A DNA stretch of 51,687 bases from Amoebophrya sp. A120 (GCA_905178155.1 CAJINV010000004.1:9300418-9352104), one strand, 5' to 3'; shown: positions 1,421 through 40,300, counted from the stretch's first letter. Made by a program: numbers and translations. The notes: generated by a model not told the origin, from the sequence alone.

Positions 1421-4338
1421 ATGAAAATGGACGGACGCAAAGTTCCCGCGAGCAGCCCCGAGGGTGTCTCCTTCGGGAACAAGAAGATGTTGCTTTGTTC
1501 TCTGCTCCCGGTCGTTTCGGTCGTGCAGGGATCGCACATTATCTTCCACGGCCCGGCTGCACTGGAGCCGGAGTCGGAGCCGCAGCCGAATGTGTTTTTG
1601 AGTCCGCGGCCCGTGAGCGCCGCGGCCCGTGAGCAAGGCCGCGAGGCGACCTCGTCCGGGAGCGGGTGGTCGACCGGGAGTCTTATCAAATGCAAAAATG
1701 TGTGGGTCTGGCAGAGTGTAAACTTGTCATGCAGGTTTTTCATGATCCATGAGGTCTGGAATGCGAGACCTAGCGTGACAGAGTCTGTGAGGTCTCTGCC
1801 ATGCCTATCCTGCATGAGAAACTCCCTCCAAACTTGGTCGAAAGTGGACAGCTTTTGGCACTCATGCAGCACAGATCTCTGCATGATTCGGATTAATTTA
1901 GCATGACAAGTTGCAATCTTCCAGACCCAGACACTTTTGCAATCCATAAGTCTTGGCTTTCTGCAAGAGGAGTCCAAACCCTCCTCCGCGGCCGCGGTTG
2001 CAGTTCCCGTGCAGAGCACGAAACGGCGAAAGAATGTGTTCTATTACGCTGCCGGAGGGACGGAGCTCGCGGCGGCGTATGCTTCCGCGCGCTATCTGGC
2101 GCAGCAACGCGATGAAAACGGCGACCCGGTTTACAACGTGGTCTGCGGATTTAACTTTGGTCTCTCGATGATGCTGGTCGGCAGGCCGGGGGAGTGGCAT
2201 ATCGGGGAGGGTGACCCGGTAGAACTCGGGTGGTTGACCGAGAAAGAAGCCGAAGTCGACTGCAGCGCTGCAGCAGCTCGCGGCGGTGCTGAGGGTGCGA
2301 GAGGAGCCAGTGGAGACAGTGCGTCCCCGTCTCCTCGAGTTCATCCCTATAACAGGTGCGATGTTCCCATCGGACACTTACCCCTGGGCAGCGATGCTTT
2401 TTTGCAGGAGGAAGTGGGAAAAACCGAGCGCATCGCCTTGTCACAACCTCTGAATTCCGAACTGAAGCGGATGAAGGCGGCGGGTGTGCACCTGGCGCCG
2501 CATCGACTGTCCCTTCAATTCATCGCCAGAGACCAGTTGCGGAAGGGAGGAAAACCCGAGGAAAAGCCCGCGGAGATGTATGGCCAGCTTTTGGCCGGAA
2601 TCCGAGACGAGGCCGCTCTCGTTGCACACGCCAAACAGGCTTTGGGAGCTATGCCACCTAGTGGCGCGGAGGCAGCGGCATCTACGGGCGTCGACGAGGC
2701 AGCTGCACCGCTGACCGAGGCAGAAGCGGAGTATGTGTACGGGTACCCGAGCTACGCGCGGTACGTGAAAAACGTAATTTTTGAAGGAGAGGCTGTCGAC
2801 CTGGCTGTTGTGGACGTGATTGCGATGAATAACCGAGAGTTTGCGAAGCAGCTGGGTCTCGATTTTCGAACGACGATGTTGCGGGAACTGAGCCCGGCAG
2901 TTCTTGTGCAATGGATTGGGAATCCCGCGATGAGTCCGTACCCCACAATTAGCGGCCGCAAGTCGGAGGCACCGATACAACCGGACGACGCTCTTGTGAT
3001 CGACATGGCCCAGGTCCCCTCCGTGACAGCGACACCTTTTCCGCTCTTTTACAATTGGGCGAATGCGAATGCGAATGCGCCGCAGTCGATTGGAGACTTG
3101 CAAAAATCACTAGAGGCCAACGCAGAGCTGGAACACACCCGGGTCGGGGCAGCCCCCGGCTGCCGGTGGTCAAGGTGCACCTGCAATCGCACCGGCAGGA
3201 GGACGGAGGTTCACAGCCGTCGGCGGACTTCGGGCCCTACGCCCTGGTCATGCCCCACCCCGCCCGCGAAGCGAATGCCAGCACAGCGGGAAGCGCTCAC
3301 GTGACCAGCCTCAGCGAAAAACTGCTTGAAGGAGGGCGGTTTGACGCACTGATCTATGTGGGCTTCGGGACGCAGCCCAACTGGTTTTCGCGCGAAGGAG
3401 TTCGGTACCTGGCGAGGGAACTCGTCGGGGCGTCGGAGTCTGCGCTGGTCTACATGGTAAAGCCGAAGCTGATGCCGGTGGATTTCGATCCGGAAGCGGC
3501 TGTTTCGCCGCAAAAGTTTTTCGCGGGCCTGGAGGCGTCGTTTGGTGGATGGCTGATGTTTCACCCGGAAGAGGTGGCGCCCCAGCTGGAGATCTTTCAG
3601 ACTTTCGGTGACGGAAAATTCATGGTCGACCCCAAGGACGGCGGCGGAGAAAGGCCGCTGCAGGTGATCTTCGTGTCGCACGGTGGCGTGGGCTCGCTCG
3701 CGGAGGCCGCCGCGTTCCGACTGCCGCTCCTGTGCCTCCCCCTGCTCCAGGGGGACCAGCCCCCGAACTGCAGACAGGTGGCGCGTATGGCAACGGGGCG
3801 GGACTTGGGCAAGCTGTCTGCTGCGATGATTCTCCACAAGATGCTCAGCGGTCCGATTGCATCCGACGTCACCAATCTCGCGGGCCGCCATTTCGCCTAT
3901 TTTTCAACGCCGGGCTGCAAGACGGGCGGCGAAGATCGTACCGGGGAGCTGAAGTTCGAAGGAGTCGTCGCCGCTACGCGCGCAGAGCTTGGCAAGCTGC
4001 AAGGCTTTTACGAGTCGGCCGCGCAGTTCTCGCAGTCCGTGCGGGCGATGAAGCGTTGGGAAGAAGAGCTTCTGCCCGAGTTCGAGCGGGAGAGCGGGGT
4101 CCCGTGGCGCAAGCAGCTGGACATCCAAGGCGTGCTCCGCACGGAAGCGAAGGCGCTGCTTGCCGCGGACTCTGCCTACGCGCAAGGAATTCGCGGAGCA
4201 CTAGACACTTCGCAGGACCTCCTGTACCAAAACACGGTAAGCCGCGAAACGGGGGCGGGCCAGTTGCTCGAGTATTTCATGCAAAACGAGAAAGAGCACG
4301 GGGGATGGATGGTCGCGGACGGGGCGACGGAAGCCTAG
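1421..4338 (+). CDS. UDP-glycosyltransferase (GT1/UDPGT-like) with long N-terminal region; one introner and one apparent frameshift near 3150-3160
   Basis: ATG 1421; removing 1684-1953 joins WSTGSL-GFLQEE in frame. C-terminal ORF carries IYVGFGT and the UGT signature FVSHGGVGSLAEAAAFRLPLLCLPLLQGDQPPNC. Frames switch around GCAGCCCCCGGCTG. Confidence 0.7.
1684..1948. mobile_element. Introner-like TIR element, family A (subfamily A1, opposite orientation to the 7408 copy)
   Basis: TAT..ATA ends, TIR TGCAAAA(A/G)TGT(G/C)TGGGTCTGG, direct repeat AGTCT; 265+5 nt removal keeps frame. Confidence 0.92.
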
Positions 4339-6621: not shown

Positions 6622-9600
6622 ATGACGGTGAGCAAACCTGAGAAGTCTGCCAAGGCAGACGGTGTGAAGAAGGTGAAAAAGGTCAAGAAAGTGAAGACGG
6701 CTACTGCGGAGCAACCAGCAGCGGCATCCACTGTGGCAGCTGCAGCACCTGTAGTGGCTGCAACGACAACATCAGAAGGCGCTGCTGTTGCGAAAAAGGC
6801 AAAGAAGACGAAGAAGGACAACAAAACTGGTGTAGCAAAGCCTACTACACCAGCTGCAGAAAAGAGTGAAGACTCCACAACAGTCGATGATCAGAATAAG
6901 AGTGCAGCTAGTGGAGCAGTTTCGTCCACGAGCACGAAAGTAGCTAGCACAAGTGCCGGATCTTCACCAGCGGAACCACAAACCATGGCAGCTTTCCTTC
7001 TGAAAAACCGCGTTGCGAATGCCCAGGACTTCCAACCGGTTCCGATGGACAACATTTCTGACATCAGTAATAAATCGAAGAAAGCTCTGAATGAGTATAA
7101 ATCCATCACCTCCCTCTTCGAGATCCAGGCCCGGGTGTTCGAGCACGCCGTGGCCGGAAAAGACGTGGTCGGGAAGGCCAAGACGGGCTGCGGAAAAACT
7201 CTGGCTTTTTGCCTACCCGTGGTCGAGCGGTTCGCAAAGTTGCTGGAGAGTCAAGACGGTGAATTCACAAAAGCAGTGTCGCGGAAGAAACCGCTGGTGA
7301 TTACCCTTGCTCCAACCCGGGAACTGGCAAAACAAATTATCCGGGACTTTGAAGTTCTGGGGAACGCGCACAATTTCTCGTCCGAGTGCTTGTACGGGGG
7401 TGTCCAGTATCAAATGTAAAAATAAATGTCTGGGTCTGGAACAAAGCAACTTGTCATGCTAAATCTGAATCATGAAAAAATCTGTGTTGCGTGATTACCA
7501 AAAGAAAAGCTGTCCACTTTTGACCTAATCGAGAGGCAGTCTCTCATGCAGGATAGGCATGATAGAACTCTCACAGAATCTCTCATGCTATGTCCTTCAT
7601 ACCAGACCTCATGGGTCATGGAAAACCTGCATGACAAGTCTGGCATTCTTCCAGACCCAGACATTTTTGCAGTTGATATCCAGTTCGGCCCGCAGTGCCA
7701 GGTGTTGCGGGAGGGGTATCAAGAAGAAAAATCCCCCCTCCCCATATCAAAACGAAACTTCTAATGCTGGATTTGCGTACACAAATCAGCCCTGTCTTGC
7801 AGTAGAGGACTGCAGGCCCGCATCAAGCCTGACTGGGAGAGGTTTTGGCCTAGGCGCTCAGCATGTCAAAAGTCCATGCTGCAGGCCGAACAGCATCACA
7901 AACCGCCGTTATAACGCGGGGGGCCTTCTGGGTTCGCCTTCTTGCAAGACAAACACGATTTGTGGCCACAAATCAGCATCGCAAATGTCCGAAAATATAC
8001 CTTTTCGGTATGGGGAGGGGGGATTTTTCCTTTTGATAAGGGAAGGCAGATCATCGTCGCGACCCCCGGCCGGTTGTTGGACCACATTCAACGGCAAACC
8101 ATCGACTTGAGCGAAGTCAGGTACTATGATCCACTTGAATGTTAATATTGCCAGGCTACTTTGAAGAGAAAATGAAAATGTCCATTAGTCGCTGCGACTG
8201 ACTCTTGCTGCAGTTGGTGCTCTTGCATGTTGACTGCGTTTTCAATTTCGTCCAAAATCAAATCGTAATCCTCGCAATTGCATGATAATCAATTCCCAAG
8301 CATGTTCAACTCGTCAATCCCTCTCAGGGCCCTCGTCCTCGACGAAGCCGATGAGATGCTTTCCATGGGTTTCCAGGAGGACGTCGATTCCGTCATCAAC
8401 GCGTTACCGCGGAAGGACGTCCAGAAGCTCCTGTTCTCCGCGACGCTCCCCCACTGGGTGATATGCAATACAAATTTCCCGTACATGTACTTACAAGATG
8501 CATCACAAATTTTACCAATGAATTTGGAGTGTGACCACACTTGTCATGCTAAACCAGGATCGAAGCCCAGTTTTGTCATGCAGAGACTGCATTTGTATGT
8601 GTACGGGAAATTTACTGTGGATAGGTGAACGACCTGGTGCAGAAAAAGATGACAGACCCGCAGTGGGTCGACATCGCGAGCAAGGACGACAACAGCACGA
8701 ACAAGAACATCAGCCACAAGTGCATCTTATGCATTGCAAATGTGTCTGGGTCTGGAAACTTGTGATGCTGGATGGCGTATCATGGGGAGGCCACTAGTGC
8801 TGGCTCAGCATGCCAAGTTTCTGAGCTTCTAGGTGTTGCCCACTCTGCGTGACAGACTGCGTCTCTGCATGACAGAAAAGTGGGGCTCTTGGGTAACGTG
8901 CATGACAGATTTAAGAGTCATACCGGGCAACCATGACAAACATGCACCCTTCCAGACCCAGACACTTTTGCATTTGATACATCTTCTGCCCGCCGCAGTT
9001 CAAAGCGGACACTTTAGGGGATTTTGTCAAGGTCCACGCGGGCGCGCTGTTTGGGAAAACCGTGATCTTTTGCGACAGCAAGAAGGAGGTCAACGAGTTA
9101 GCGCAGCACGAGAAATTGGTCCAACTCGGCGCGGGGGTGTTGCACGGCGACGTCCAGCAGAACCAACGCGAGGTCGTGATGGAGAATTTCCGCACGGGAA
9201 AGATTAAAGTTTTGGTCGCAACTGACGTTGCGGCCCGGGGTCTGGACGTGCCGTGTGTGGATTTGGTGATCAACACGCGGCCGCCGCAAGACGTGGAGTC
9301 CTACGTCCATCGATCCGGCCGAACCGGCCGCGCGGGGAACAGCGGGGTTTCGATCATCTTCTACAGCCGGTCGGATGAGTACATGATCCGGATTTTGAAG
9401 CGGAAACTCGGGATTGAAATGCAACGCGTCGGGCCGCCGCAACCGTTCGACATTGTGAAATCCGCGGCGAAGGACAGCACGCGGTTCTTGGATTCCATAT
9501 CAAATGCAAAAGTGTCTGGGTCTGGAAGGTTGGAACTTGTGATGCTATTTTTGGACTCTAAAAAAATCTGTATTGCATGAACAGCAAGAGGAGTCTAAAT

Positions 9601-10689
9601 TGTGCTACGCGGGGAGGGCGTTTGTCGTGCGGAGTAGGCATCAGGAAGCCCTCTAAAAATCTGTGATGCTAGGCCGTGCATTACAGACATCCTGTGTCAT
9701 GCAAAACATGCTTGACAAATTTCAGAATCTTCCAGACCCAGACATTTTTGCATTTGATATTCCATCCACCAGGACAACGTGGAGGCGTTTCTGGACCAGG
9801 CGAAGCAGATGATTGAGGAGCGCGGCGTATCCTGTGTAAAAACGTCCCCACCTCCCCATAGTTGTCATGCAAATCCGCCATGACAGGAAGATTTGTAATG
9901 ATCATCTCCATAAAAGGCATTTCGATTTCCGATTGTGTTTTCGCATTTGTAATGCTGTGAACAGGATGTGGATGAGACAGAGACTTTCTCATGCGGCTTC
10001 CCTTGCTAACCAGCACTACACTGCAGATGGAGACTTGTCATGCGCAACTCCTAAAACTTGGAGATTTGTGTTGCAGATTTACCAACTTGACTATGGGGTG
10101 GGGACGTTTTTGCTCAGGATACGGCGCGGAGCAGGCGCTAGCCGCGGCGATGGCGGGGTTGACGGGTTACACGAAGCGGGTGCAGGGAAGGAGTCTGTTG
10201 TCCTCGTTTCAAGACTGCACGTGCCTGAAACTCACCAGTAACAAGCCGATCGAAGCGACGTCGAAGGGGTTTTTCCTCCTCCGCCAATTTTTCGATAAGT
10301 CCTTGACCGAGGATAAGATCAAGGGGATGACGTTGTGCGCAGATAACTACTCCTGTATCTTCGACGTCCCTTCCGACCAGGTGGACGCCATGATGGCGAT
10401 CGTGCAGACACCAGGCGTGTTATGGGACGGGATTGAGATCACGATCCCGCGGGAGCTCCCTGAGTTGCAGGAGCGGGACGGAAACAGCTGGCAGAACGAC
10501 GAGCAGGCGCATAAAGATAGAAAGAAAATGCTGTGGGAAAGGAGAACCGGGAAAGGCGGCGGTGGCAAGGGCGGTGGTAAGGGCGGTGATCACGGCGGAA
10601 AAGGAAAAGGAGGCGGGAAGAAGGGCGGTTTTACCGGTAGAGGTGGCGGATCTGCTGGCGGAAAAGGACAGCGATCGGGACCGTATTGA
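6622..10689 (+). CDS. DDX21: DEAD-box RNA helicase, nucleolar DDX21/DDX50 (RH-II/Gu)-like, 755 aa after removing 6 introners and 1 GT-AG intron (8121-8327)
   Basis: Motifs [50 protein letters not shown]; GUCT-like region (RSLLSS...FDVP) and G/K-rich tail; 4068-1800=2268 nt, divisible by 3. Confidence 0.9.
7408..7678. mobile_element. Introner, family A (A1)
   Basis: TAT..ATA, DR TCCAG; joins GGVQ-FGPQ. Confidence 0.92.
7717..8038. mobile_element. Introner, family B
   Basis: TIR TATCAA..GAAAAATCCCCCCTCCCCATA; DR AGGGG/AGGGA; joins [14 protein letters not shown]. Confidence 0.9.
8462..8623. mobile_element. Introner, family C
   Basis: TIR TAT..AAATTTCCCGTACA; DR GGTGA; joins HWV-NDLV. Confidence 0.92.
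8728..8979. mobile_element. Introner, family A (A2)
   Basis: TAT..ATA, DR CATCT; joins HKCI-FCPP. Confidence 0.92.
9498..9759. mobile_element. Introner, family A (A3)
   Basis: TAT..ATA, DR TTCCA; joins FLDS-IHQD. Confidence 0.92.
9828..10121. mobile_element. Introner, family H
   Basis: TIR TATCCTG.G.AAAAACGTCCCCACC; DR CGGCG; joins EERG-AEQAL. Confidence 0.92.
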
Positions 10690-12449: not shown

Positions 12450-13847
12450 ATGGTGGTCGAACACCTGGAATTTGCGTCCAACGAGGAGTTAGGGATCACA
12501 AATATGTCTGAATCGGGAAGATTTCTAGATTTGTCATGCATATTTTCCATGAGCCATGATGTCTGTGATGCATGCCGTAGCATCGCAGATTTTTAGACGG
12601 CTTTGTGATACCTCTACCGCATGAGAAACGCCCTCTCCACGTAGGACAAACCCGACACCTCATCTTGCTGGTCATGCAATACATTTTTTTTTAGAATCCA
12701 CAGACAGCATCACAAGTTGTCACCCCCCAGACCTAGACATATTTGCATTTGATAGAAGTTGCAGAAATTTCTCGACAAGCACAAGATCGTCATCCTCGTT
12801 TTTTTATGGATTGCAAAAGTATCGTACTCGTATAAATGCATTACAAATTTCGACTTCCACCTCAGCATGAGAAAGAGAGTTTGCAATGCTGATTTACCTT
12901 AGGCAAAAGATTTGTAATGCATGACTGCAATACGAATACGTACGATACTTTTGCAGTGCATATTTCTCCGGTGATTGGTGCGGCCCCTGCCTGCGCATGG
13001 GCCCGGAGTTCGAGAGACACGCGAAGGAGCACGAAAATGCGATGTTTGTGATCCTCGACTGCGACGTATGCAATACAAATTCCCCGTACATGTACAAGAT
13101 GCATCACAAATTTCACGAATTTGGAGCGTAAAACTTGTCATGCTAAACTAGGATCGAAGCCAAGTTTTGTCATGCAGAAACCGCATTTGTACGCGTACGG
13201 GAAATTTACTGTGGATACGACACGTGTGCCGTGTGTGCGGAGGAGAACGACATCGACTGCATCCCGATATGGGGCTCTCAAACGTTACATTCTCAACTGT
13301 TACCTGAATTTGTAATGCAAGAACAGCAACAGTGAAAGTGGCAAGATAATTGCAGCTTTCGCATCACAGATTTTCCAGAGATTATCATGCTGTATAGCCC
13401 TTCGCGAATTTGTCATGCTAGAAGCGCCTTGATCAAGTAGAGGCTGATGGCAATTTTGCATGACAAATGTAAATGGTGTAACAGTTGAGAATGTAACAGT
13501 TGAGAGCGCCATACCCGACCTTCCTCGCGTACAAGCACGGAGAAGAATTCGACCGGTTCGAGGGGGCGTGCCAGAAGTCGCTGGAAAGGATGATCGAAAA
13601 GGTGTTTGCTGATGGAGCAGCAAGTAGTCGTCCTCGGGACGACCACGATGTCGCTTCGTCAACCGCAACGAATATTAAAACCCTGCTGACTTCTTCCACG
13701 GAGGACCACATCAAAGACGATGCGGTAGAGCACCACGGAAAGCAGGGCAGCACGGGAAAAAAGGACAAATCGGACGGACAAGAAAGAAAAGGCGCTATCG
13801 GTAACGAGGACCACGGGGCTGCAGTCCGGGGAAGCAAAGACAAGTAG
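12450..13847 (+). CDS. Thioredoxin with C-terminal extension, 185 aa, split by 4 introners
   Basis: Rebuilt sequence MVVEHLEFASNE(E/K)LQKFLDKHKIVILVFSGDWCGPCLRMGPEFERHAKEHENAMFVILDCD..CAEENDIDCIPTFLAYKHGEEFDRFEGA; WCGPC active site and cis-Pro IPTF; 1398-840=558 nt. Confidence 0.88.
12490..12754. mobile_element. Introner, family A (A3 reversed, degenerate left TIR starting TAG)
   Basis: DR GGAGT/GAAGT; 270-nt removal keeps frame. Confidence 0.85.
12805..12962. mobile_element. Introner, family E
   Basis: TIR TAT....TGCAAAAGTATCGTAC; DR TTTTT/TTTCT; joins LVF-SGDWCGPC. Confidence 0.88.
13067..13217. mobile_element. Introner, family C
   Basis: Very similar to the 8462 copy; DR CGACG/CGACA. 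Confidence 0.9.
13268..13513. mobile_element. Introner, family F
   Basis: TIR TATGG.GCTCTCAA..GTTACATTCTCAACTGTTAC; DR CCCGA; joins CIP-TFLAY. Confidence 0.92.
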
Positions 13848-14970: not shown

Positions 14971-16730
14971 ATGACCGTAAGAGCAGACTTCTATCCAGCA
15001 ACGGCGTCTACTACAACGTCAAGTGCAAGAACGCAGAAACCTTCGACATCAGCACTAACCGGGATTTCTACCTCCATGGAGGAAATCGCCGGTGAACAAC
15101 AACAAGGTCTTCCCGGGAATGTCCAAGCGGAACTACAACAGCAACCGCGACGGTTGTCTACCAACTCGACCTCCTCTGCTTCAACCAAGAAGCCTACGAC
15201 GCGTTCGTGGATCCCCCTTTCCTTCCGCGACGTGGCAGAGGACCGGGTTCTCAACGTCCTCACGTACAACATTCTGTCCGACGAGAAGGCGGTATGGAAG
15301 CGTCAGGTTTGAAATCGACAAAGTTGAGATGATTTGTCATGCATAAAATGCAAGGCATGAAGTGCCTGTCTTGCCGGGATGGCAAGTGAGGCAGATTGTG
15401 AGCCTATTTAGGGTTTGGGATAGAGCTGCTAAAGGAGCATGACAAAAGCAGTCTTCTGTGCCCAAGCAGCATGACAAAGTGGGGTCCGGTGGTCCGAAAA
15501 TTTGTCATGCGCCGCTTGGAAATTGGGCTTCCAACTGGTATCGATTTTATACATTACAAGTTATTTCAATCCTGACACCCCCATAAGCGGCGAAAGAAGA
15601 GTGGGCCACAAATGTTCCGCCCTTCCAGCACAGGAAGGGGATTATTGTCGAAACCATCGCGGCGAACGACTTGATCGCGTTGCAGGAGGTGGGACCTGCT
15701 GTGTTTTCCGAGCTGAAAAAACAATTGGACGAAAGTTACGACGGGGTTTTCTTCCAGCCCTCGATTCCGCCCTGCGGCGTCGCGGTGTTCGCACGGAAAT
15801 CGCGTTTGAAAATCGCCCGGTACGACGGGTTCCAAATCGAGGACAGCATGTGCTTACAATGCGAAATCCGGATGCTGGTAAACGGGAAGGTGAAGATGTC
15901 GAAGAAAAATCTGAACAACAAATTCGCCTGCGAAACTGTGCATTTTTTCGCGATCCATTTCTGTGGCGGAAAGCAACCGGGGGATGAGGAACGAAGGGCG
16001 AGGCACTTGAAATTGCTGCACGAAAACGCGATAGAGGGACTAATAACCGACCCGGCAGAAGGTGGTGGCGAAGGCAACAATAACTCGTTCTCGCCGAAGA
16101 ACATTATCGTCGCCTGCGACAGCAACAGCGAGCGGACCTTCGCGCCAGTGGAGGAACTCGAGCCGGTTTGGTACGGAGAAGTGAAATATGCATCGCAATA
16201 AAAGTATGGTACTAGTAGAAATAGCATATACAAATTTTTCCAGAAGGAAGAACGGAATTTGTAATGCTGAATGAGCTAAGGCACCAGATTTGCCATGCAT
16301 GACTGCAATTACTTATTACTACGAGTGCGATACTTTTGCACTGCATATTAAGAGGTTGTGGCTCGAGCCGGGGCTGTTTCAGGACGCGGTGTTGGATGCG
16401 AATTTGTTGTACACGACGAAAAAGATGCGAACCGAGGGAAAAATCACGCAGCGAGCGGTGGACTACATCTTTGTCAGCTGCAATAAAGCGGATAATTTGA
16501 CGGTCCACGGCGTGCTGGACGTGCCGAGGTATGTTGCAAGTAGTACGAAGAGGTCAACAATCGCGGAAAACTTGATGCCAAATGAAGAGTATGTGTCAGA
16601 CCATCTACCAGTAGTCTGCAAACTTTCTGTCGGCACAGGGGGGACTTCTGGTCGTGCGTCAGCGGAGTTTCACTTGAGAAAACACAGGGGATTTTTGACG
16701 TGTATCTTCGGCGTGAAAGATGAGGACTGA
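14971..16730 (+). CDS. Endonuclease/exonuclease/phosphatase (CCR4/nocturnin/PDE12-like) protein, 431 aa, 2 introners
   Basis: EEP motifs LTYNIL, IALQEV, IVACDSN, VDYIF, SDHLPV; 1760-464=1296 nt. Confidence 0.82.
15293..15585. mobile_element. Introner, family D
   Basis: TIR TATGG..G.GTCAGG.TTGAAAT; DR GGCGG/AGCGG; joins DEKA-AKEEW. Confidence 0.88.
16187..16347. mobile_element. Introner, family E (diverged)
   Basis: TAT..ATA; DR TGAAA/TTAAG (both read Val-Lys); joins EVK-RLWLEPG. Confidence 0.85.
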
Positions 16731-23595: not shown

Positions 23596-23626
23596 TTTCC
23601 ATCTACGACGCCGGGTGTTCCTTCCA

Positions 23627-23862: not shown

Positions 23863-24124
23863 TATCAAATGTAAAAATGTCTGGGTCTGGAAGAATGCAA
23901 CTTGTGATGCTGCATTTGAATTCCAAAAAAATCTGTATTGCATGAGTACCAAAGAAAATGCAACTTTTGCTACGCTGACACGGCATTTGTCATGCGGGAT
24001 ACGCATCAAGAAGCCCTCAAAAAATCTGTATTGCTAGGGTATGCATCACAGACATCATGGCTCATGCAAAACGTGCATGAAAAGTGTCAGAATCTTCCAG
24101 ACCCAGACATTTTTACAGTTGATA
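23863..24124. mobile_element. Introner, family A (A3)
   Basis: TAT..ATA, DR AGAAG; minus-strand frame joins GHF-YEAIN. Confidence 0.9.
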
Positions 24125-24222: not shown

Positions 24223-24501
24223 TATGATATGTAAAAACGCCCCCACCCCATAGTCAAGTTGGGAACTTAGCAACACAAATCCAGAAGTTTTGGGAGCCAC
24301 GCATGACAAGCTGCAGTCCGTAGTGTAGTGCATGTTAGCAAGGAAAACCGCATCACAAATCCATCTGCTTATCCTGTTTGCTGCATTACAAATTCCAGAA
24401 CTCGATTGAAAATGCCCCTCATGGAGATGCGCATTACAAATCTTTCTGTAATCGCAAATCTGCATGACAGCTATGGGGTGGGGATGTTTTTACTCAGGAT
24501 A
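24223..24501. mobile_element. Introner, family H
   Basis: TAT..ATA, DR CCCAG; related to the 9828 copy. Confidence 0.9.
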
Positions 24502-24563: not shown

Positions 24564-24799
24564 TATCAAATGCAAATATGTCTGGGTCTGGAAACTTGTG
24601 ATGCAAACCAGGGAATACCGGGCGCACTGCCACTGTCATACGTGGCCAAGCATGACACGTTTTTGAGCTGCTATGTGTAGCGTATTCCGCATGGCAGACT
24701 GCGCTTTTCCATCACAGACAAAGCGATCTTTTTGCATCTACGCATGACAGAGTTCCGAGACATGTCAGACAAGCATGACAAGTCTGGCAATCTTCCAGA
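24564..24799. mobile_element. Introner, family A, right TIR truncated
   Basis: Ends CAATCTTCCAGA without CCCAGACA..ATA or a second GCATG. Confidence 0.8.
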
Positions 24800-24905
24800 G
24801 GACCCGGACAAATTTCCATCTACGACGCCGGGTGTTCCTTCCAGGGCTGCGAGCAGTTCGATTCCTTCTTCGGGTCGAGGGGAATCGCGAGAGCCGGGTA
24901 GTACA

Positions 24906-25160
24906 TGTGGATTGCAAAAGTGTCTGGGTCTGGAAACTTGTGATGCTGAGTGGCGAAGCATGAGGATGCCACAAGTGACGGCTCAGCATGACAAGTTTCT
25001 GACTACTTGCTACGTGTTATGTATTCAGCATGACAAACTGCGTTTTTGCATGACAGAAAGTTGGGGCTTTTGGGTAACGTGCATGACAGACTTGAGAGAC
25101 ATGCTAGCCGAGCATGACAAACTTCCGCGCTTCCAGACCCAAACATTTTTGCATTCGATA
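24906..25160. mobile_element. Introner, family A (A2), left end TGT
   Basis: DR GTACA; minus-strand frame joins DNLY-YPAL. Confidence 0.88.
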
Positions 25161-28308: not shown

Positions 28309-31300
28309 ATGGCCGACGTCGGCGTAGCGCCGGGCTACGCTTTCCGCGGCGGCGACGCGACTGCTGCGGCCAACGGGGTCCGCGATGCGGTCCGCGGTTT
28401 CGACTTCGCCAGGGTGGACGCGAGTCGTTTCACCTGCGATTACTTCGCCAACCTCGCCCAGTCCTACGTGAATCGGGGGGATACGAAGGGGTTGATCACG
28501 GTCACCGAGATTGTGAAGACCAACTTCCCGTCCGATGAGATCAATCTGAACTTCAACTCCGTCGTCTCCCGGCCGCGACGGACGCTGGACATGGCGGAGG
28601 TGCATGTTCTGCTCGCGGTGTTGATGAACAAGCTAGGGGAATTCGAAAAGACCGAGCAATACGCAAAATATGCGATCGGGCTCACAGATTTCCTATTCGA
28701 AATGATCCGCAAGATCAAGCGGGCGAACAAACGGATTGAGATGGACGAAGTGAAGTACCTGTCCGGCATGTACGACATCGACCGGATCTGGTACGACAAG
28801 GTGGTCCACGTTTCCTGCACGGCGCGCGAGGTTCTCGGCTGCGAGCAAGCCAGGCAGAACCGCGTCGCGATGGCGGGGAAGGTGGAGCAGATGCAGAGGG
28901 ACTTCCTGCACAATATCCTGTGCAAAAGTATCGTACTCGTAGTAATTGCAGTCATGCATTACAAATCTTTTTCTTAAGCTAAATCCGCATTACAAATTTC
29001 ATTTCTCATGCTGAAGAAATTTGTAATGCATTTATACGAGTGCGATACTTGTTTTGCAATTCATGCACAAGCTCTCCATGCAGTTCGCGGGCGCGTATGG
29101 CGAATTGAAGAAGGAACTCCGGGAGCGGGAAATCGACCGGTTGATCAAAACCAGGAAAAGGTGGAGCAAAAGTCGAAAGTTGCTGAAGGTGGTGAGGAAA
29201 ACGCTAAGCGCGGCGAAGGCAGTGGAACAGACCCAGACGGCGGCAGAGAATAAGGCTTTGCGGGAGGAAAAGGAGAAAACGCAAGCGGAAGATGGCGTTC
29301 CCTTTTTGGACGCACCGCCGGCAAGAGGGGCAGCAGGAGCAGGAGCTCCTGGTGGGGCGGATATTACGACCACTGCCACTGATGTCGTTGAGCAAGCTGC
29401 TGCAGTTGAGGGAGCGGAAGCTGCTGCAACTACAACTACTGCTACGACTACTGCTGTTGATGCAGAAGGGCCGGGTGCAGCTGCAAACGCGTCATCTGAG
29501 CAGGCCGCGCCTGTAGAAGCAGCAGCTACAGAGGAAACTGCAAATAAACCTGCGACTACAACTGTTGAATCTGAAGCCGCAGCGCCTGCTCCTGCAGCAG
29601 AAGACGACGCACAACAAGCAGCCGCACCTGCAGTTCTTCCGGAAGAGGCCGCAGAGGCGGGTACGACCGAAGCCGCCGCTGAAACCGAGGCTGCGGTGGA
29701 AGGAGAAGATCAACCAGCGGCCCCAGCAGAGGGTGAGCACGCTGGTATCGATGAGCAGCCGGCAATGACTGCGACAGAGGAAGCAACCGGTCCACCTGCT
29801 GTTGAGGAGGCGGAAGGGGAAGTAGCAGCTGCCGCTGCTGCTCAAGCGGAGATGAACAAGGCAGAAGATGAAAGTGCACCTGCTCCTGAGGCAGAAGCCG
29901 CAGCTGCGGATGCTGGTGGCGAAAATGCTCCCGCCGCGGCAGAGCCAGAGGAAGCGGCTGCAACGGCAGTGCCAGTGGTCGAAGAGGAGGCACCAGCGCC
30001 GCCAGAGGAATCGCCCGCAGAAGCTGCCGCTCCGGATGAACAGGAAGCTGAGCAACAAGGCGCGGAAGCTCCTGCTGTCGAGGGTGACCACGAGGCGCCG
30101 GGGCAAACCTCCGCTGAGGAAGGGGCGAATGAGGGCGAAGCTGCAGAGGAGGCTGCAGGTATAGTTTAGAGGCTGTGCAACAATTGGACCCCCTTTCGAC
30201 AGGTCGAAAGGGGGGGGGGGGTAGGTAGGTCGACAGCCGGAAACCGGCGGCCGGCCCGCCGATGTGTGGGTGGGGGTCCGGCCCCACAACGGCCCGTGGC
30301 TCGGTCGCCGGCTCCTCCGGCACTGGTCGGAGGCCCGCCTTTGCTTGTGTGCAGGCACTTATCCACAGCGCCGGGCTTCACTACAACTCCGACAAGGAAC
30401 AAAGCGCACTCCGCTTTGTTCTTTGTCGGAGCAGCGAGCCACCGAAACCGGCCCCGCGCAGCATGATACTGGAATGGCCTCAGCTTACGCACTGGCCCAC
30501 AGCTCTACTTTTTGGAGGGTTGCGCCGTGACCTGCTACGCCCTGTTCCTTTTCACCCATCACGGGGCACAGCAGGCGCGAGCCCTGCCTTTCACTCCGCC
30601 GATTTTCCGTCGGGAAAGGGGTTCTGTTGCATGGCCTGGCGCGCGATACGAGACCGCGCGCCATCCCATGGCGGGTCATTTTATTCTGGCCGGAATGGTG
30701 CAGAAGCAGATGTTTTTTGCAATTGACTCACAACTAGGCTCCGCGATTCTGATAGTAGATCGCAGGACCGCATCCGGCGAAGCGACTTTTTTGGCTGTGT
30801 GGCAACGACGACCACAGGCGGACTTCGTCGCAGAAATTCAGAAGTCCGGCCTAGTGGTTGCCCACTATGGCGGATTTTATTAGACTGCTTTCATCATAGT
30901 GGTAGCCCGCCTATGTTCGTTTTCGCTTCGTTCGCCGCAAGCCTTTGGCAAATGAATAAAGGCGAAGTCGCGGCGGTTTTCCTAGCAATTTAACCACAGC
31001 GGGCGCGCGCAGCGCGCCCCGCGAAATTTTTTTTGCAGGCAATGTAAAGCACACGCGCGTGGCTCCTAAAATTTTTTTTTTACAAAGACTAGTTCGCGAA
31101 GGGAGTGGGCAATATACCGGCACCGGGCGCGCGCAGCGCGCCCCGCAAAATTTGCAAGCAATGTAAAGCAACACACGCGCGCAACGTAGCTGCACCTCGG
31201 GCGGCGCGTGGGGCCTAAAGTTTTTTACTAGTTCGCGAACGAAAGGGGCAATGTACCAGCACCGGGCGCGCGCAGCGCGCCCCGCGAAATTTTTCGCAAG

Positions 31301-34300
31301 TAGGCCGCGATCCAAGCAGGAAAGGCCGGGGAGCGCCTTGAGCAGGTGTGCGTAGCGCACCCCACACAGCCCATCTTTTAGAAACTGGGGACGCTTGTCG
31401 AAAGGGGGGGGGGAGGGGGGAGGTAGGTCGCCAGCAGGCCGCTGACCCCCCTTTCGACACGTCGAAAGGGGGTCCAGTTTTTGCACAGCCTCTTATACCT
31501 CTGGAGGTGACGATGACGATGTTGAAAAAATAGTACGTCGCTGATTATACTTATGCGTCTGCGTGATGTGTTGAAGCCCGTTCTCCTGATTTGCATGAAG
31601 TTGAAAAAAGAAATACGAGCAGAGCTACTAGCTATAGACTTCAACTCGGTGTTCGTGTTCGTATCACAGAAATCAAAATTTTATCACAGCCGCGGCCGCA
31701 GAGCCGGCTGCTCCGGCGTTAGCTGAAGGCGCTCCCACTGCTGCAGCCACAGCAGCTGCCAGCACCGGCGACCAAGTTGCTGACGAAGAACCCGCCCGCG
31801 ATCTGTACGACCCGCTCCACAAGAGATTTGACTCGCAGGAGATGCGAAAATTTTCCGAGATCGGCATTGGGGACGGAATTTTAGAACCGGAGGAGGGGGA
31901 GCAATTTGACGAGCTCGACTACGACCTCCAGGATGTCGACACCTACGCCCGCGAGGGTCTCGGCTCGCTCCTCGACGAGGTCCGCGGGCCGGGCGTTCAG
32001 AAGGAGTACAATTTCAATTTCGAATTCGAAGATGAGGAGCCGGAACGGGAGTTTTACGAATCTTCCGGCGAATCGTCGACCGATGAATCGGAGTTGGAAG
32101 CGGGGTTGCAGAGGTTAATGGGCGGCGACGGCGGACCGGTGCAGGAGCATGTGGAGGAGGAAGATCCGTTCACACAACTTGTCAAAGCCGGTGGGAAAAT
32201 CCCGCGGGACCGGATCTGGGAGTTGCTATCCCACTATTTCGAGGTCGCGGGCCTCGGAGATCCGCGCGACGAGTTGGAGCGGTTGCAAATGAGCATGGAC
32301 AGCACGATGAACCAATCGGTTAACTTTTTGACGAAGAATTGTCAGTCGTTAGCGGACCAAGTCGAAGCGATCGCGTCCAACTGGTTCGACGCCCCATACG
32401 AATCGGCCGAGGACATCAAGAACATGGGGCGAATCCGTGCCGCCGGCGGCGATGTGGAGAAGTACAAAAGAATGATGGCGAAGCGGAAGAAAGAGGAGAA
32501 AAAGACCGCAGCGGCCGACAAGTACCTCGGTGCACCGCATCTAGCGAAACAGCACGAGGTGCAAACGGGGCGGATCACGTATGAAAGCCTCAGGTTGGAA
32601 ATCCTCAAAGTGGAAATGATTTGTAATGCAAAAAAACGAATCCAGTTGAAGCGCCATTTCTAGTCGGCGCATAACAAATTTTCCGGGCACTCAAAGCATG
32701 TCTGTCATGCTAGGTAGGCAAAGGGGTGCCCTTCTCTCGTGCTAATCAGCAGCCCAATTCTGAACCCCTAGCAGGACAATGGTCGGTCTCCATTGTGTCC
32801 TATGCAATACAGTCTTTTTTGCCTTGCATTTCATGCATCACAAATTATTTCCACTTTGACGATTTCCATTCTGAGGCCTTCATATCACGGCGATCGTGAA
32901 CGGGCAGAAGAAGCACACGGAAAGGGTCGTTATCAAAACGAAAAATCCCCCCTCCCCATATCGAAAACGAAACTTGTGATGCGGGATTTGTGTACACAAA
33001 TCGGCTTCGTCTTGCAGTAGAGGACTGCAGACAGATACAAAGCCGGAGTAGGGGCGTTTTGGTGTAGGCGCTTAGGAAGGCAGGCATATCCTCCGTAGGC
33101 CCTACAGCATTACAAATCGCCTGCAGGGCGCAGCGGGGTTTTTGGTTTTGCCTGCTTGCAATACAGAGACGGTTTGTGGATGTGGTCTCCAATCAGCATC
33201 ACAAATTTTCCCCGTTTGGTTTAATGGGGAGGGGGGATTTTTCCTCGCAGTAGTCGTGAGTAAAAACTTCGCGGAGGCGGATGAAAGGATGTGGACTTTG
33301 GCGGAAGCGTTGTGCGATCTACTCGTGCAGGTGAAGCGCAAAGGTGCGGACGGCCGGGCGAAGGCGCGAGAGGTTTTGGGTGGTGGCGAATCGTTTTTAT
33401 CCCCCATGCGGAAGAACTTGCAGTTACAATTGGAGATGGACCCGATGCAACTGCACCCGGGCGCGACCTTCTACTACCGCGCGAGCCCCTCTAGCAGTCG
33501 AGGGCTTGGTAGTCCGAAGAACGCGCACTTGCTGAAGAAAAAGGAATTGCTGGACAGAGTGGCAGATCAAGCGGCGGCCGCGACAAGTCCGGAGAGTTCC
33601 GCGCCGCCGAGTCCGAAGCGGAGGTTATCACCCGAGGACATAATTTTCTTGTCTCTGAGACAGCGTGTGATTCCCAGATCGGAGCGCGAGATTGTGATCA
33701 ATGTCCGGCTCGAACCTCCGGAGAAGGGCACGGTGCGGCCGGCGCCGGACGAGCCGCTGTGGCTGCCCAAATCGCCGGCGAAATCGCCGGAAAAGTCGGC
33801 AAGTGGAACGGCAAGTGTGGCGCAGAGTCCAGCGGGGAAGCCATTGAGTCTCCAGTCCCTTGGCAAAACGGCATCCACCGTGAAATTCATGACTGGTGGG
33901 AAACCCTTCGCGTTCGGCGCGTCACCGACCGCGCCGGCGACCGGGGTGCAGGTGGCCACAGGAACAGCGGCAAATGGTGCAGCAAATACTGCCGACGTTG
34001 CTCCCCCGGCGCCGCGACCTGGCTCTCCGAAGGGAATTCTCGCCTCGCCCAGCGCAAAATCACCGAAGCACCAGAACAGCAGCACCGGAAGTCCGTCAAA
34101 CCGCGGCACTCCAAGTGGTCATCATCATCATCATCACGGCAACCAGCAGCACCAAGAGGCTGTCGGCGCCTCTTACCTTCGCGCCTTGCGTCGCATCGCT
34201 GACGAAGCGACCAACCCCCCGCCGAAGACGAAATTTAGGCAGCAGAGGACGAGGAACAACAATGGGGACTTGGGTTTGTCCGCGGCACAACAATTAACCG

Positions 34301-37300
34301 TGTTGGACCGCTTCCACCGCGGGGAGAAGCAGTTTGTGAAGCTGAAAGACGCGCACTTCTACCCGAGGAACGACCATACGGAGAAGAAGCCGACGATTGC
34401 GGCGATGCTGGCCGGGCAAACATCAACGTACAACTCCGCGACGCAACAACAGTTCAGTGCCACAGGGCGGTCGAGCTCGCAATTCTTGCACACGGCGAGT
34501 ACCACGGTTGCGGACGGGAGGTCGATGTTAACGGCTACTTCTGCAGATAACTTCACCAACTCGCTGATGTCGACTACCGCGATCTGGAACAACCAACAGA
34601 GATCTGTCGACGGAACGAATACAGATGCAGCAGCTCAGAATAACAGCCTGCACCAACAGTCTCAGTCTTCCTTCCGATCGACGACTTTGTCTTCTTCCAT
34701 TCTGCAACCGCAAATGAACAACTCGATGAGCATGACGAATTTCAGCTTCTACGACGAATCCATGCTGTCCGAAAATGATCGGGGTTTATTCGATGACTTA
34801 GAAGAGCAAGAGGAGGACAGTGACGAGGAGAACGAAGTTGCTGCACAGCTGGAAAAGCGGGTGATTGAAAAGCGGAAACGACGAAATTTAGTCAGGAAGC
34901 CAAACTACTTCACGAAACAATCCCGCTGCTTCGAGAACATGCGATCAGCGAGGTCGGCGACACTTTCTTACCCGATCTTCTCCGAGCCGGTCTTATTCGT
35001 CCCCGAGCCCCTGCGTGACAACGTGCAATTGAAAGACGCCCAGATAAGGCGCAGGTTGAGGAAGTACCAAACCGACGGCGCAGCGTTTGGCTTAACAAAG
35101 TTCATGAAGCCGAGGGAAAAGGATAAAAAGTCCGTGAAGGGAATTATGTTCGGACTACGAGTCTCCTCGTTAGTGAACGTCGCAGCAGCGAAGTTCAAGG
35201 CGAAAGGGTTGCTAGACAACACGTACAAGACGGGGCAAGGCGTGTCGCAGTATTTGGATAAGGTGGCGCAGGAAAGGATGAAATTAGAGAAGGAGAAGCA
35301 GGGGAAGCAGGAAAAGCAGGGCAAACCGTCGAAATATGGAACTGTCAGGTTTGAAATCGTCAAAGTTGAAATAGTTTGCCATGCATAAAATGCAGCGCAG
35401 AAAGTGCCTGTCTTGCAGAGTAGGCAAGGGGGGCAGATTGTGTGCCTGTTTCGGGGTAGAAATAGAGCTGCTAAAGTAGCATGGCAAAAGGCGTCTTCCT
35501 TACCCAAACAGCATGACAGACTGGATTTCGGCTCTACCCAAATTTGTCATGCGTCACTTGGCAACTGGGTTGCAACTTTCATCCATTTTCTGCATTACAA
35601 GTTATTCCAACTTTGTCGATTTCAATCCTGACACATCCATACGAAAGCGGACGTGTTTAAAAAGGAAACGAAGATGGCACAGAGCAGAAGGGAGTTACTG
35701 TTATGCATTGCAAAAGTATCGTAGTAGTATAAATTGCATCACAAATTTTGGCAAGAAGGAAATTTGTATATGCTGTTTTGCATTAGGAAAAACATTTCAA
35801 TTTGTCATGCATATTTGCAATTAGTACGAGTACGATACTTTTGCACAGGATCACTGTCGATTTTCGACAATTTCCGGCGGCACAGCAGACGGCTGAACTA
35901 CGAAATGTCGTTGCTCACACCCGACTACTTATTCGACAACGTGTTCCTTTACAGCAATTTCTCCTTCCCGATGCTGCGAAGGAAGGCGATCAAGCAATTC
36001 GAGCGGGAGATGAAATTACGCGTGTACATGCGGAAACCAAGTGAATTGCTGCTGATCCAGAAGAAACTCTCGAGTGGTTTCCGAAGAATGAAGGAAGACC
36101 AGTTGTCGATCGATCACCGACGGATGTTGCGCGACATCGGGCGGATGGGAGACTACAAAGAGTACCGGCAGAGGATATGCAGTGCAAAAGTATCGTACTC
36201 GTATAAATGCATTACAAATTTCCTCAGCATGAGAAAAAAATTTGTAATGCTGATTTACTTTAAGGAAAAGATGCATGATTGCAATGCGAGTGCGATACTT
36301 TTGCACAGGATAGAGGAAGCCGCGGAATGAGTTACCGCTAGATCCGGAAGAGCTCGCGATGTATATGGCGTTCTCAAATGTTACATTCTGCTCAACTGTT
36401 ACATGATTTGTCATGCAAAATGAGCATCAACGTCCACACAGTGAAGCTGCCTCGCATGACAAATTTTGGAAGGGCTAAAGCTAAACAGCATGGGAATCTG
36501 TGCCGAATTTGTAATGCAAGAGTTGCAAGACCCCGATCCGGCCTTGTTTCCTGCCTGTTGCCATTCTTGCATCACAAATTCATGTAACAGTTGAGAATGT
36601 AACAATTGAGAATCCCATAATGTACGAGCAGCAATTTGAGGACGCGCCGTTGATCGATGCCCACCCGAAAATGCCGGACGAGAAGGTCTTCTTCGTGAAA
36701 TCTCGGGCGCAAGCACCCGACTATGGAAGCGTGGTCAGGATTGAAATCATCAGAGTTGGAATAGTTTGTGATGCATAAAATGCAACCAGCAAAATACCTG
36801 TCTTGCCGACTAGGCAAGGGAGGCAGATTGTAAGCCTGTTGAGGGGTAGCAATAGAGCTGCTAAAGTAGCATGAAAAACGGCGCCTCTTTACCCGAACAG
36901 CATTACAAACTGGATTTCGGCTTTACCCAAATTTGTCATGCGCCACTTGCAAACTAGGCGCCAACTGGTATCCAATTTATGCATGACAATATCATTTCAA
37001 GAACTTTGTTGATTTCAATCCTGACACACCCATACCGACCCGTCAGCGGATAAAAACAGCGGGCAGTTGGGGAAACGGCCGGAAAGGATGAAGGACAAAG
37101 AACCCAAAATCCGGTACATTTGGCGGGACAAACCGGACGTGCCGTTGGTGGTTCCGCGGATCGCGAAGGCGGAAATTGAGGAAAAACAGGCGAAACAGGC
37201 GATTGACTACGCGAAGGTGAAGCCGGAGGCGAAGAAGGTGTTGCGGATTCTACACGAGGATATGGTCCCGACCTACTATAAGAAGGAGAAGGAAGCCGAG

Positions 37301-40300
37301 AAAGCGATCATCAAATCCTTGTCCTACCGCGTGATGCGGTCGAAATCCGGATACGACGACGCGTTTTTGTCCGACTTAGACGAGGAGGAGGAAGAGGAGG
37401 AGGACGAGGTGTTCGATGAGGATATGGCTGTGTGAATAAATCACGTTTCTTGCAATGTACGTCAATTTGCCATGCAAGGGTGCTGCCCAGAGAAACAGAT
37501 ACAGGTTCAGGTCAGGAGACTTTGTGTCTACTACTATGTATTGTGCATGACAACTTGATAATTGATAATTGTCCACGTGTAGTACTAGTTGGTGATTTGT
37601 TCACCCCCGATATCCGAAGAGCAGATGCGGTTAGCAGCAGAGGCGGAACAGAAGGCCAAGATATGGGGTTCTCAAACGTTACATTCCCAACTGTTACATG
37701 GATTTGTCATGCGAAAGCAGCATCATCATCCTCACGATCAAGCTGCTCCGCATGACAAATTTGCGAAAAGCCAAACCGCGCCTAAATCTGTGCCAAATCT
37801 GTCATGCAAAAGGCGCAATCTTCCCCCTTTCAGTTTTGCCATTCTTGCATCAGAATACTCATGTAACAGTTGAGAGTGTAACAGTTAAGAACGCCATGCA
37901 AGATGATCGAGAAGTATGGTGCGGACGTGGCGGAGAAATTGCTGAAGGCCCAGGAGATTGAAGTGGTGGAATTCCTGCCGCCGATCGACCCGCGGGAGGA
38001 AACGGATGTTTTCTACTCGAAGTTAACCGCCCACGCCCGGAAAATGGAGGAGGATATGACAGTGCACAACTCCCCCTCCCCCTCATTTGTCATGCAAAAT
38101 CTTAAATCCAGTCGCTCTCGCTGCCTTGTGGCACTGTTTGCATGACAAGTTCTGGCAGTGGCTGCCCAAATAGCACTACACTCCAGTGTCAATTTGTCAT
38201 GCAAAACCGGCATTCTTGCTGATGCTTGTGTTGCCGTTCATGCTATACAAATGAAGGGGAGGGGGAGTTGTGCAAGCTCATAGAGGACGGGGAAGTGTCC
38301 AAATCGAACTGGAAGTACCGGCTGTCCGCGAGTCAGATGATGTATCCTGTGCAAAAGTATCGTACTCGTACTAATTGCAAATATGCATGACAAATGTTTT
38401 TCCGAAGGGAAAACAGCATTACAACACCCTTCTGGCCAAAATTTGTGATGCAATTTATACTAGTACGATGCTTTAGCTTTTGCAATCCATATGATGCGGA
38501 AGAAGGCAAAACTGGTCTCCGCTTTAAACATATCAGATGCAAAAACGCCTGGGTCTGGAAGGATGCGAACTTGTGATGCATAGTACTTGGATCACACAAA
38601 AATCTGTCATGCTTAAACAGGAACGGGAGCTCCTTCTCCTGTCGCCGAAAGAAGGCGTGGAAACCGCCTCAAAACCTTTGATGCTAGGCCTTGCATGGCA
38701 CACCTTCCGTGTCAAGCACACACAGCATCACAAAACTCAGCAATCTTCCAGACCCAGTCATTTTCGCAATGCATAAAACAAAGCGATGTCTACGGACGAC
38801 GGGGAGGAGGCCTACGAAGACGAGGAGACTTATGGGAGTGTCAAGATTGAAATCGTCAAAGTTGAAATTATAGTTTCTCATGCATAAAACCGATACCAGT
38901 CGGAAGCCCACTTCTCAAGCGGCGCATGACAAATTTTCCGAGCACCGGAATCCAATTTGTCATGCTGTTTGGGCAAATAAGACTGCTTTTGTCATGCTAC
39001 TTTAGCAACTCTATTTCAAACCCTAAACAGTCTCACAGTCGGCCTCACTTGCCATCCCGGCAAGAGAGGCACTTCATGCCTTGCATTTTATGCATGACAA
39101 ACCATTTCAACTTTATCGATTTCAATCCTGACGCTTCCATAAGATCGCGGCCGCCAAAGACGCCCTGCTACCCGGAGATCTTGCCGGCAAAGAGTTGAAA
39201 GCGGAGGACAGGAAAGCGGCGAAGGAGCAGCAGAAAGCGGCGGGGGGTCGGGGTGGGCGGATGAAGGTGCCGAAGTTTGTCCGGGAGGGGTTCTTATCAA
39301 GTGCAAAAATGTCTGGGTCTGAGAGAATGCATGTTTGTCATGCTTGTCTGGCATGACACTTAAATCTGTCATGCACGCTACCCAAGAGCTCCATTTTTCT
39401 GTGATGCAGAAACGCAGTTTGTCATGCAGAATAGGCAACACCTACAAGCTCAGAAACTTGTCATGCTGAGCCAGCACTTGTGGCCTCATCATGAGACGCC
39501 ACCCAGCATCACAAGTTTCCAGACATCCAGGGATTTTTACATTTTATAGTTCTACCGTTTTTTGGCCAAGGAGATGGGCGTCGCGAGTTACCGGATTCCC
39601 CGGGACAACTCGGCGAAGATGGTGAAATTGATGTGGAACGTCTACGAGGAATCGTACGCTAGAACGTTGTGGTATCCACAGTAAATTTCCCGTACCGCCG
39701 TACACATGCGGTCTCTGCATGACAAAACTTGGCTTCGATCCTAGTCTAGCATGACAAGTTTTACGCTTCAAATTGGTGAAATTTGTGATGCATCTTGTAC
39801 ATGTGCGGGAAACTTGTATTGCATATGTGGCAGCAGGGCGTGGAAAAATTCGGACCGAAAATCATCGCGACCGCGGTTTCGAACCCGGCGGAGGCGGAGC
39901 ATTTCAAGAAGATCATGATGAAGTATGGGCTCGCGCAGGGGAAGAAACTGCGGGTCGCGATGAGCTCCGCGGGCGTGTTCCAAGACGTCGCGTCCCCGGC
40001 CGTGAAAGCGAAACAGGAGGAAGCTCTCAAAAACGCCACGGAGGACGATGACACGGAGCACAAGGGGGCGGATTTGTCCTTCCGGATGGATTTGCTCAAG
40101 GGCGCGCGGAAAGCGACAAATGAAATCGCCGAGGCGCAGGCGGTATGCACTGCAAAAGTATCGTATTCGTACTAATTGCAGTTATGCATTTACAAACGTA
40201 GGCTGTTAAGGTAAATCCGCATTACAAATTTATTTCGTAATGCTGAGCTCATTTGTATTGCAATTTATACTAGTACGATACTTTTGCAGTTCATAGGCGG

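Follow-up and report, generated by a model that had tools for sequence, protein, structure and literature searches.

Introner-type inserts in the window

The window analyzed here, the whole stretch of 51,687 nt from Amoebophrya sp. A120 (GCA_905178155.1 CAJINV010000004.1:9300418-9352104), contains genes interrupted by short repeated inserts. The exon at 8984-9490 matches a DDX21-like protein with 100% identity, and the source of this protein gives Amoebophrya sp. A120. Every insert carries an internal word, TTGT(C/A/G)ATGC, which is likely a DNA-level site selected for the copying of these elements. The inserts were bounded through their ends and duplications, without use of the word; 38 were found, 137-322 bp long (Table 1). 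Up to 15 inserts occur in one gene, whereas none lies anywhere in intergenic DNA or in long stretches of coding sequence (1950-4340, 17490-19190, 25200-27480, 41600-51350).

Introners of A120 have been described by Farhat et al. 2021 (PMC7789003) and Gozashti et al. 2022/2025 (PMC9860276, PMC12130899). According to the text of PMC7789003, these introners have an inverted repeat of TAT, seven variable bases and As, direct repeats of 3-5 nt, and non-canonical splice pairs. The window inserts show the TAT inverted repeat, the border duplication, non-canonical removal (see below) and repeated families and are, as judged from sequence, A120-type introners.

A TAT start, an ATA end and a 5-bp duplication are common to all families. 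Both TAT and ATA are intact in 28 of the 38 window inserts, and one end is altered or missing in 10; the duplication is exact in 26 and has one mismatch in 5 (together 31/38). The interiors could not be aligned across families, the best cross-family blastn match in the window being 15-47 bp. The preliminary description of this stretch had called the terminal inverted repeats (TIRs) of the families unrelated. This was overstated, since all families share the TAT...ATA ends and the duplication, and families A, B, C and H are similar at positions 8-14 after TAT; families B and C group in one cluster. Because cross-family matches are so short, yet the TAT/ATA ends and 5-bp duplications are universal, the families form one class of ends with differing interiors. 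At TIR positions 4-7, a small set of words recurs across families, and the two ends of a copy agree there in 61 of 314 copies.

The word shared by the inserts

Two further statements of the preliminary description, that many insert families share TTGT(C/A/G)ATGC and that it is nearly missing from exons and intergenic DNA, were borne out. The window contains 92 matches (47 forward, 45 reverse), against 1.43 expected and at most 5 in 100 dinucleotide shuffles. All but one lie inside inserts (91 in 8,795 bp), and the remaining 42,892 bp hold a single match, at position 969. Each of the 38 inserts has at least one strict match, and shuffles of the inserts alone gave a mean of 0.7 and a maximum of 5 matches (300 shuffles) against the real 91. 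Every coordinate that had been named holds exact matches (1724/1901; 8500/8541/8573; 9862/9947/10035; 13310/13410/13458; 15334-15502; 37545; 38087/38140/38194). The core is therefore real, but it had been taken too short: an iterated profile lengthened the word to AAATTTGT(C>A,G)ATGCa. Sites of this profile number 161 within inserts (18/kb) against 0.37/kb outside, and an element carries the word 2-6 times in either orientation. Six control stretches of canonical and other introns lacked the word (best scores 3.3-9.1). CpG is depleted in the inserts (0.62).

A search with a family A end as query returned 153 loci, all in one other assembly (536.5 kb non-redundant); the family frequencies in these loci are biased by this choice of query. 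Insert sequence was the sole sequence that these loci have in common with the window (best 94%). A motif-blind finder detected 382 inserts, of which 378 carry a profile site. They form 12 clusters of three or more members (3-195 copies), four without a counterpart in the window, and all 12 families of this size carry the site, which together with the ends is all that they have in common. The enrichment was reproduced: the element-homologous DNA (121 kb) holds 1,016 strict matches (8.4/kb), and the other 415 kb hold 80 (0.19/kb). Many of these 80 lie in further unique insert-like DNA. Sites last in such unique, TIR-decayed DNA, often 31-33 bp apart as seen by eye, uncounted.

Motif-free inserts with TAT...ATA ends and a 5-bp duplication were also found in the second assembly, at L057:2970-3149, L067:2386-2653 and L051:1639-1749, the last being nested. 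Three intact-ended elements (L062:632-1465, L090:3862-4492, L055:505-1608) hold several hundred bases of foreign sequence. At L052:2628-6083, a C-5 cytosine DNA methylase gene is split across two open reading frames (ORFs).

Spacing of the sites

The geometry was analyzed on ten non-alignable family consensuses, from which A2 and C were excluded as non-independent. Outermost sites lie 36-52 bp from the element end in 16 of 20 cases (P 6.5e-4). Of 29 gaps between neighbors, 12 are 31-34 bp (P 2.5e-4) and 8 more are 46-49 bp, and the spacers share no sequence across the ten consensuses. The best period was 16.0 bp (P 0.003, the floor of 300 shuffles), about 1.5 helical turns; family A also has gaps off this lattice, of 39 and 53-54 bp. 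A pure 10.5-bp phasing was also tried and gave a poorer fit. TIR positions 3-16 resemble the reversed word in families B/C (35% score at least 5) and at some A ends (11%), against a background of 0.02%.

The distance from the ends and the regular gaps fit a subterminal, transposase-type DNA site, as had been suggested. In the Hin/Gin inversion systems, orientation-independent Fis sites about 48 bp apart organize the recombination complex; these enhancers are bacterial and occur once per locus. The likeness to a Fis-type recombination enhancer may serve as a lead only.

Removal of the inserts from RNA

The removal of the inserts was analyzed in sequencing runs, of which X3-X6 represent one sample whose RNA library type was inferred, and X1 is possibly the window's own source. 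A contig of run X6, 4,635 nt long, has 13 listed exon joints, each of which skips exactly the insert plus 5 nt. In a 2,645-nt contig of X3, six further inserts were removed, as judged by piece lengths, along with a 207-nt GT-AG intron. Since this contig lacks the GT-AG intron, it represents spliced RNA. Raw reads of X9 and X10 gave 44 and 2 matches, all partial, and added no evidence on splicing.

In ciliates, internal eliminated sequences are removed by programmed DNA elimination. The exact loss of an insert with one copy of its duplication, which restores the frame, would also follow if the word marked the inserts for such elimination. This explanation seems hardly credible, since the insert-free contig also lacks the GT-AG intron and contigs of the DNA-like run X1 read from exon into insert, no exon-exon joint occurring among 15 of its roughly 2,150 joints.

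The joint from 38829 to 39146, found in X5 and X6, is the sole unambiguous one because its two duplication copies differ. Here the cuts fall one base ahead of TAT and four bases past ATA. Together with the strand asymmetry described below, this joint gives a cut rule: one base before TAT and four past ATA, with T fixed at +2 and A kept at -7. The rule predicts a T as the second base, and in Table S4 of PMC7789003 the second base of the nine predominant A120 splice pairs is always T. An avoidance of C or preference for G at intron position +1, as in a drift to GT, was considered and failed (58 C in 280 strand-called inserts; mismatches trendless).

DNA site or RNA signal

The transcript strand was called by a codon model, and the strand tests cover 280 of 360 scored copies or 260 of 386 homology copies. 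Changes in the core are equally frequent in sense (201/4409) and antisense (195/4278) sites, 4.56% each. At the termini, by contrast, the 5' T was changed in none of 260 copies and its mirror at the 3' end in 10 (P 0.002). At the third base, 8 changes were counted at the 5' end against one at the 3' end; there this base is an A, seven bases ahead of the cut, and is possibly a branch point. Because the core changes equally on both strands while the terminal T is strand-specifically fixed, we conclude that the word is likely a DNA-level site, not an RNA signal. The strand-specific constraint points to the termini as the place of the splice signals.

The preliminary description had also offered an RNA role for the word, as a tag for removal, through an RBFOX-type UGCAUG or through hairpins of sense and antisense copies. 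UGCAUG is the RBFOX splicing element and is expected on the transcribed strand with a strand bias. It occurs 219 times in sense and 237 times in antisense, without bias. In 8 of the 19 inserts verified by RNA and in 125 of the 280 with a called strand, the sense strand lacks it. In family H, all sites lie on one strand, yet the elements are found both ways in coding DNA (10 sense-only, 12 antisense-only), which together with the equal decay on both strands argues against a removal tag in RNA. As for hairpins, the predicted fold of a D element does contain pairs between some opposed sites, but the stem that closes the ends is formed by the TIRs (z -9 and -14, predicted folds). A modest excess of sense sites (577 vs 473; 116 vs 86 elements, P 0.04) favors an RNA element and weighs against the DNA-level reading. 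Guidance of excision by an RNA element is nevertheless largely refuted and, in our estimate, very improbable.

Selection on the word

Trees were built for 11 subfamilies of eight or more members (252 of 420 copies). The eight fixed core bases vary at 4.2%, against 17.7% elsewhere; the middle base reaches 26%. On internal branches, 24 core changes were found against 214 expected; on terminal branches, 271 against 643. The terminal:internal ratio is 11.3 for the core and 11.1 for TIR positions 15-30, against 3.15 elsewhere (P 1.6e-11). Changes in the site are thus purged on internal branches in the manner of the TIR.

Mismatches between the duplication copies, 0.041 per site, served as a clock for the time after insertion; 7 of 346 copies with three or more mismatches were excluded. 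With 30-100% of exonic changes assumed to be tolerated, the core rate after insertion is 0.8-1.2 of neutral. Copies with aged duplications also show higher core damage (+0.008, confidence interval 0.0001-0.017). A stratification by private load was set aside for its regression-to-mean bias. The purge along replicating lineages with near-neutral drift afterwards is the signature of selection for copying. The neutral decay that the preliminary description had set against a function is therefore largely present after insertion, but not before it (24 vs 214), and G+7, treated below, departs from it.

The word might also be a functionless relic of a single ancestor, made of ~32-bp repeats, behind all families. 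The common TAT...ATA ends and 5-bp duplication, the B/C cluster and the likeness of the A/B/C TIR to the word agree with such an origin. The spacers, however, cannot be aligned, whereas variation in the core is 4% against 18% elsewhere and its middle base is free, and the nine-fold purge on internal branches would refute a relic unless the deficit were an alignment artefact of collapsed repeats. We regard this explanation as improbable. Common ancestry may be true, but the word would then have been kept only by selection.

Other features of the window

Between two genes, a GC-rich tandem repeat of ~235 bp with poly-A tracts occupies 4860-5600. A 1.3-kb GC-rich insert with TIRs, without the motif or a 5-bp duplication, lies within a gene at 30166-31495 and has no relatives in the second-assembly loci. 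At 23437-25200, a piece of a minus-strand gene with its own inserts follows half of a family A element, and ~30 bp of flank is duplicated (23595, 24811); this layout is either a rearrangement or a misassembly.

Table 1. Inserts of the window and one canonical intron, with the evidence noted for each.
Positions	Strand	Feature	Evidence
1684..1948	+	family A insert, 2 strict sites	TAT..ATA, exact 5-bp duplication
7408..7678	+	family A insert, 2 sites, DDX21-like helicase gene	removal inferred, X3 contig 9 piece lengths
7717..8038	+	family E insert, 1 site	removal by X3 contig piece lengths
8121..8327	+	canonical GT-AG intron, site-free control	207 nt closes X3 contig arithmetic; best position weight matrix (PWM) score 3.5
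8462..8623	+	family C insert, 3 sites	X3 contig piece lengths
8728..8979	+	family A insert, 1 site	X3 contig piece lengths
9498..9759	+	family A insert, 1 site	X3 contig piece lengths
9828..10121	+	family H insert, 3 strict sites, sense strand only	X3 contig piece lengths
12490..12754	+	family A insert (TAG start), 2 sites, thioredoxin-like gene (by eye)	
12805..12962	+	family B insert, 2 sites	
13067..13217	+	family C insert, 3 sites	
13268..13513	+	family F insert, 3 sites	
15293..15585	+	family D insert, 4 sites	
16187..16347	+	older family B insert, 1 strict site	duplication with 2 mismatches
20737..21053	+	family D insert, 2 sites	
21100..21248	+	family B insert, 2 sites	duplication not recognizable
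23437..23594	+	family A insert, left half, 1 site	
23625..23788	-	family X insert, partial, 1 site	
23863..24124	-	family A insert, 2 sites	
24223..24501	-	family H insert, 4 strict sites, one strand only	
24564..24810	-	family A insert, damaged end, 2 sites	
24906..25160	-	family A insert, 4 sites	
28914..29065	+	family B insert, 3 sites	
32580..32884	+	family D insert, 2 sites	
32931..33252	+	family E insert, 3 sites	
35335..35641	+	family D insert, 2 sites	joint skips 312 = insert+5
35702..35852	+	family B insert, 2 sites	joint skips 156
36176..36312	+	family B insert, 2 sites	joint skips 142
36364..36619	+	family F insert, 4 sites	joint skips 261
36722..37034	+	family D insert, 4 sites	joint skips 318
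37423..37612	+	family I insert, 1 site, duplication unclear	joint unlisted; repeat skipped nearby
37662..37898	+	family F insert, 2 sites	joint skips 242
38055..38282	+	family G insert, 3 sites	joint skips 233
38343..38491	+	family B insert, 3 sites	joint skips 154
38531..38775	+	family A insert, 2 sites	joint skips 250
38830..39145	+	excised stretch of family D insert (38831-39141, 4 sites)	joint 38829 to 39146, X5 and X6
39295..39548	+	family A insert, 4 sites	joint skips 259
39673..39825	+	family C insert, 3 sites	joint skips 158
40144..40295	+	family B insert, 1 strict site	joint skips 157

Discussion

We propose, with a probability of about 0.57, that the word is a double-stranded site for a mobilizing complex, arrayed so that differing families could borrow one integrase-type machinery. 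The binding protein would likely be an integrase-type transposase or its accessory factor. Bound to a lattice of ~16 bp (1.5 turns), an array of this protein might help to bring the two element ends together for transposition, and families with differing TIR interiors would use the common machinery via the word. Once an element is inserted, most of the word would drift. Splicing would then depend on the termini (the cut before TAT with T at +2, and the cut after ATA), joined by the TIR stem. The common code read by one factor, which the preliminary description had envisaged, is supported in so far as the word is shared, keeps its distance from the ends and its spacing, and is under strong purifying selection in replicating lineages; its use as a removal tag in RNA is unsupported.

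Several observations weigh against this proposal. On terminal branches, G+7, the G of ATGC, was changed in 0.45% of site-copies (6 of 1,333), compared with 2.0-3.2% at T+1, T+6 and C+8 and 5.3% for ATGC outside sites. Its rate is ~0.15-0.2 of neutral, and its constancy was also seen without alignment (4 vs 21-38 one-mismatch words). A site without a role after insertion would not be expected to show this constancy; the cause may be a host factor that selects for this G, or protection of the base. Core singletons, moreover, stand at 0.65 of the context-matched expectation, and the 2-6 redundant sites of an element could mask host selection. The clock rests on the assumed exonic tolerance and on a 0.5% genome sample, and assembly errors would bias it towards neutrality. 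The TIRs of families D, E, F, G and H are unlike the word.

The presumed transposase was also sought. Among the 113 longest ORFs (of 200 candidates), none matched a transposase or integrase Pfam entry, and no motif-ended long or autonomous element was found in the window or the second-assembly loci. The text of Farhat et al. 2021 likewise reports that no transposase was found for A120 (PMC7789003). These results, too, count against the proposal. In its favor, the supplement of PMC12130899 lists for A120 an 808-bp family (38) with integrase-like ORFs and a "5-bp TSD [target-site duplication], TA/TA termini". At 51357-51687, a family B-type left end leads into 330 bp that lack a strong site and run off the window edge; this is possibly a long or autonomous element. 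In a viral scan, the paired-motif pattern returned 34 loci, most of them with just the two searched sites; the number of PWM sites in 1-2 kb never exceeded 8. A family A end gave no match.

The main alternative interpretation is less likely. On resident copies, a host factor may bind the word as a DNA or chromatin tag, irrespective of strand, and the tag would cause the insert to be removed co-transcriptionally or silenced; carriers would be tolerated and so spread. This interpretation agrees with the near fixation of G+7 on both strands of resident copies (3/552 and 2/537), with the site in nearly all second-assembly inserts, with its persistence in TIR-decayed DNA, and with its lack in the six control intron stretches. 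According to the text of PMC7789003, U1 small nuclear RNA was not found in the genus Amoebophrya, which would also suit it. The remaining core bases, however, drift about neutrally after insertion yet are purged on internal branches, as selection for copying predicts. Three site-free or weak-site inserts with TAT ends and a duplication (at L057, L067 and L055) break long reading frames that would reopen only when the insert plus 5 nt is taken out. In addition, the strand-specific constraint already suggests the termini as the place of the splice signals.

A broader and rather unlikely form of this interpretation is that a host DNA-binding factor, and not a transposon protein, both licenses the copying of introners and flags them for removal, by reading TTGTNATGC sites that form a 16-bp lattice in tens of thousands of them. 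If this were true, any element that adopts the code would become a tolerated intron, as in a passport system run by the host, and the spread of 12 or more families without a detectable transposase would be explained.

Returning to the proposed site for a mobilizing complex, a word common to all families could serve as bait for the mobilizing protein and as a marker for the autonomous element. The text of PMC7789003 poses as questions both the movement of A120 introners and their splicing with arbitrary dinucleotides. As the strand test parts the word from the splice signals at the termini (N-T donor, 3' cut), movement and splicing become directly testable.

Comparison with known systems

The word is likely of a known sort, namely subterminal transposase sites, and would be undescribed for these introners in the searchable literature. 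The texts of the A120 papers (PMC7789003, PMC12130899) mention no shared internal word, spacing rule or fixed cut position, their figures (logos S19-S25) lying outside this coverage; the texts of PMC9860276 and of a preprint on dinoflagellate introners (10.1101/2020.10.14.339549) mention no such motif. Literature searches returned no paper on it; subscription journals were outside their coverage, so that prior notice is possible.

As to the ends, IS3EU/GingerRoot and Ginger2 are integrase-type DNA transposons, and the text of PMC10045372 gives IS3EU/GingerRoot elements TA..TA termini and a duplication of usually 6 bp, and Ginger2 a duplication of 4-5 bp. An IS3/integrase-like DDE transposase is a further mark of IS3EU/GingerRoot. 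The TAT...ATA ends of the introners agree with TA..TA termini, but their duplication is 5 bp and the RNA joints skip the insert plus 5. Ginger termini differ, according to the text of PMC12130899. The nonconventional introns of euglenids and the introns of Fritillaria derived from miniature inverted-repeat transposable elements resemble the introners in that a TIR stem joins non-canonical ends, with a duplication at the junctions; their end signals differ, and the text of PMC11282704 does not report a shared internal word for them.

A close parallel in the arrangement of the word would be Emigrant and Lemi1. As described in the text of PMC1636448, Lemi1 binds subterminal repeats of Emigrant that copy part of the TIR, and their arrangement is thought to affect mobility; subterminal repeats are also cited there for Sleeping Beauty, pogo, CACTA, hAT and Stowaway. 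In both Emigrant and the introners, short repeats lie inside the ends in both orientations; among the introners, a likeness to the TIR is seen for B/C and some A ends and not for D, E, F, G and H. Emigrant and Lemi1, however, represent one family with its cognate TIR, whereas here one word, known from sequence alone, occurs in 12 or more families with differing TIR interiors and spans the whole element on a lattice of ~16 bp.

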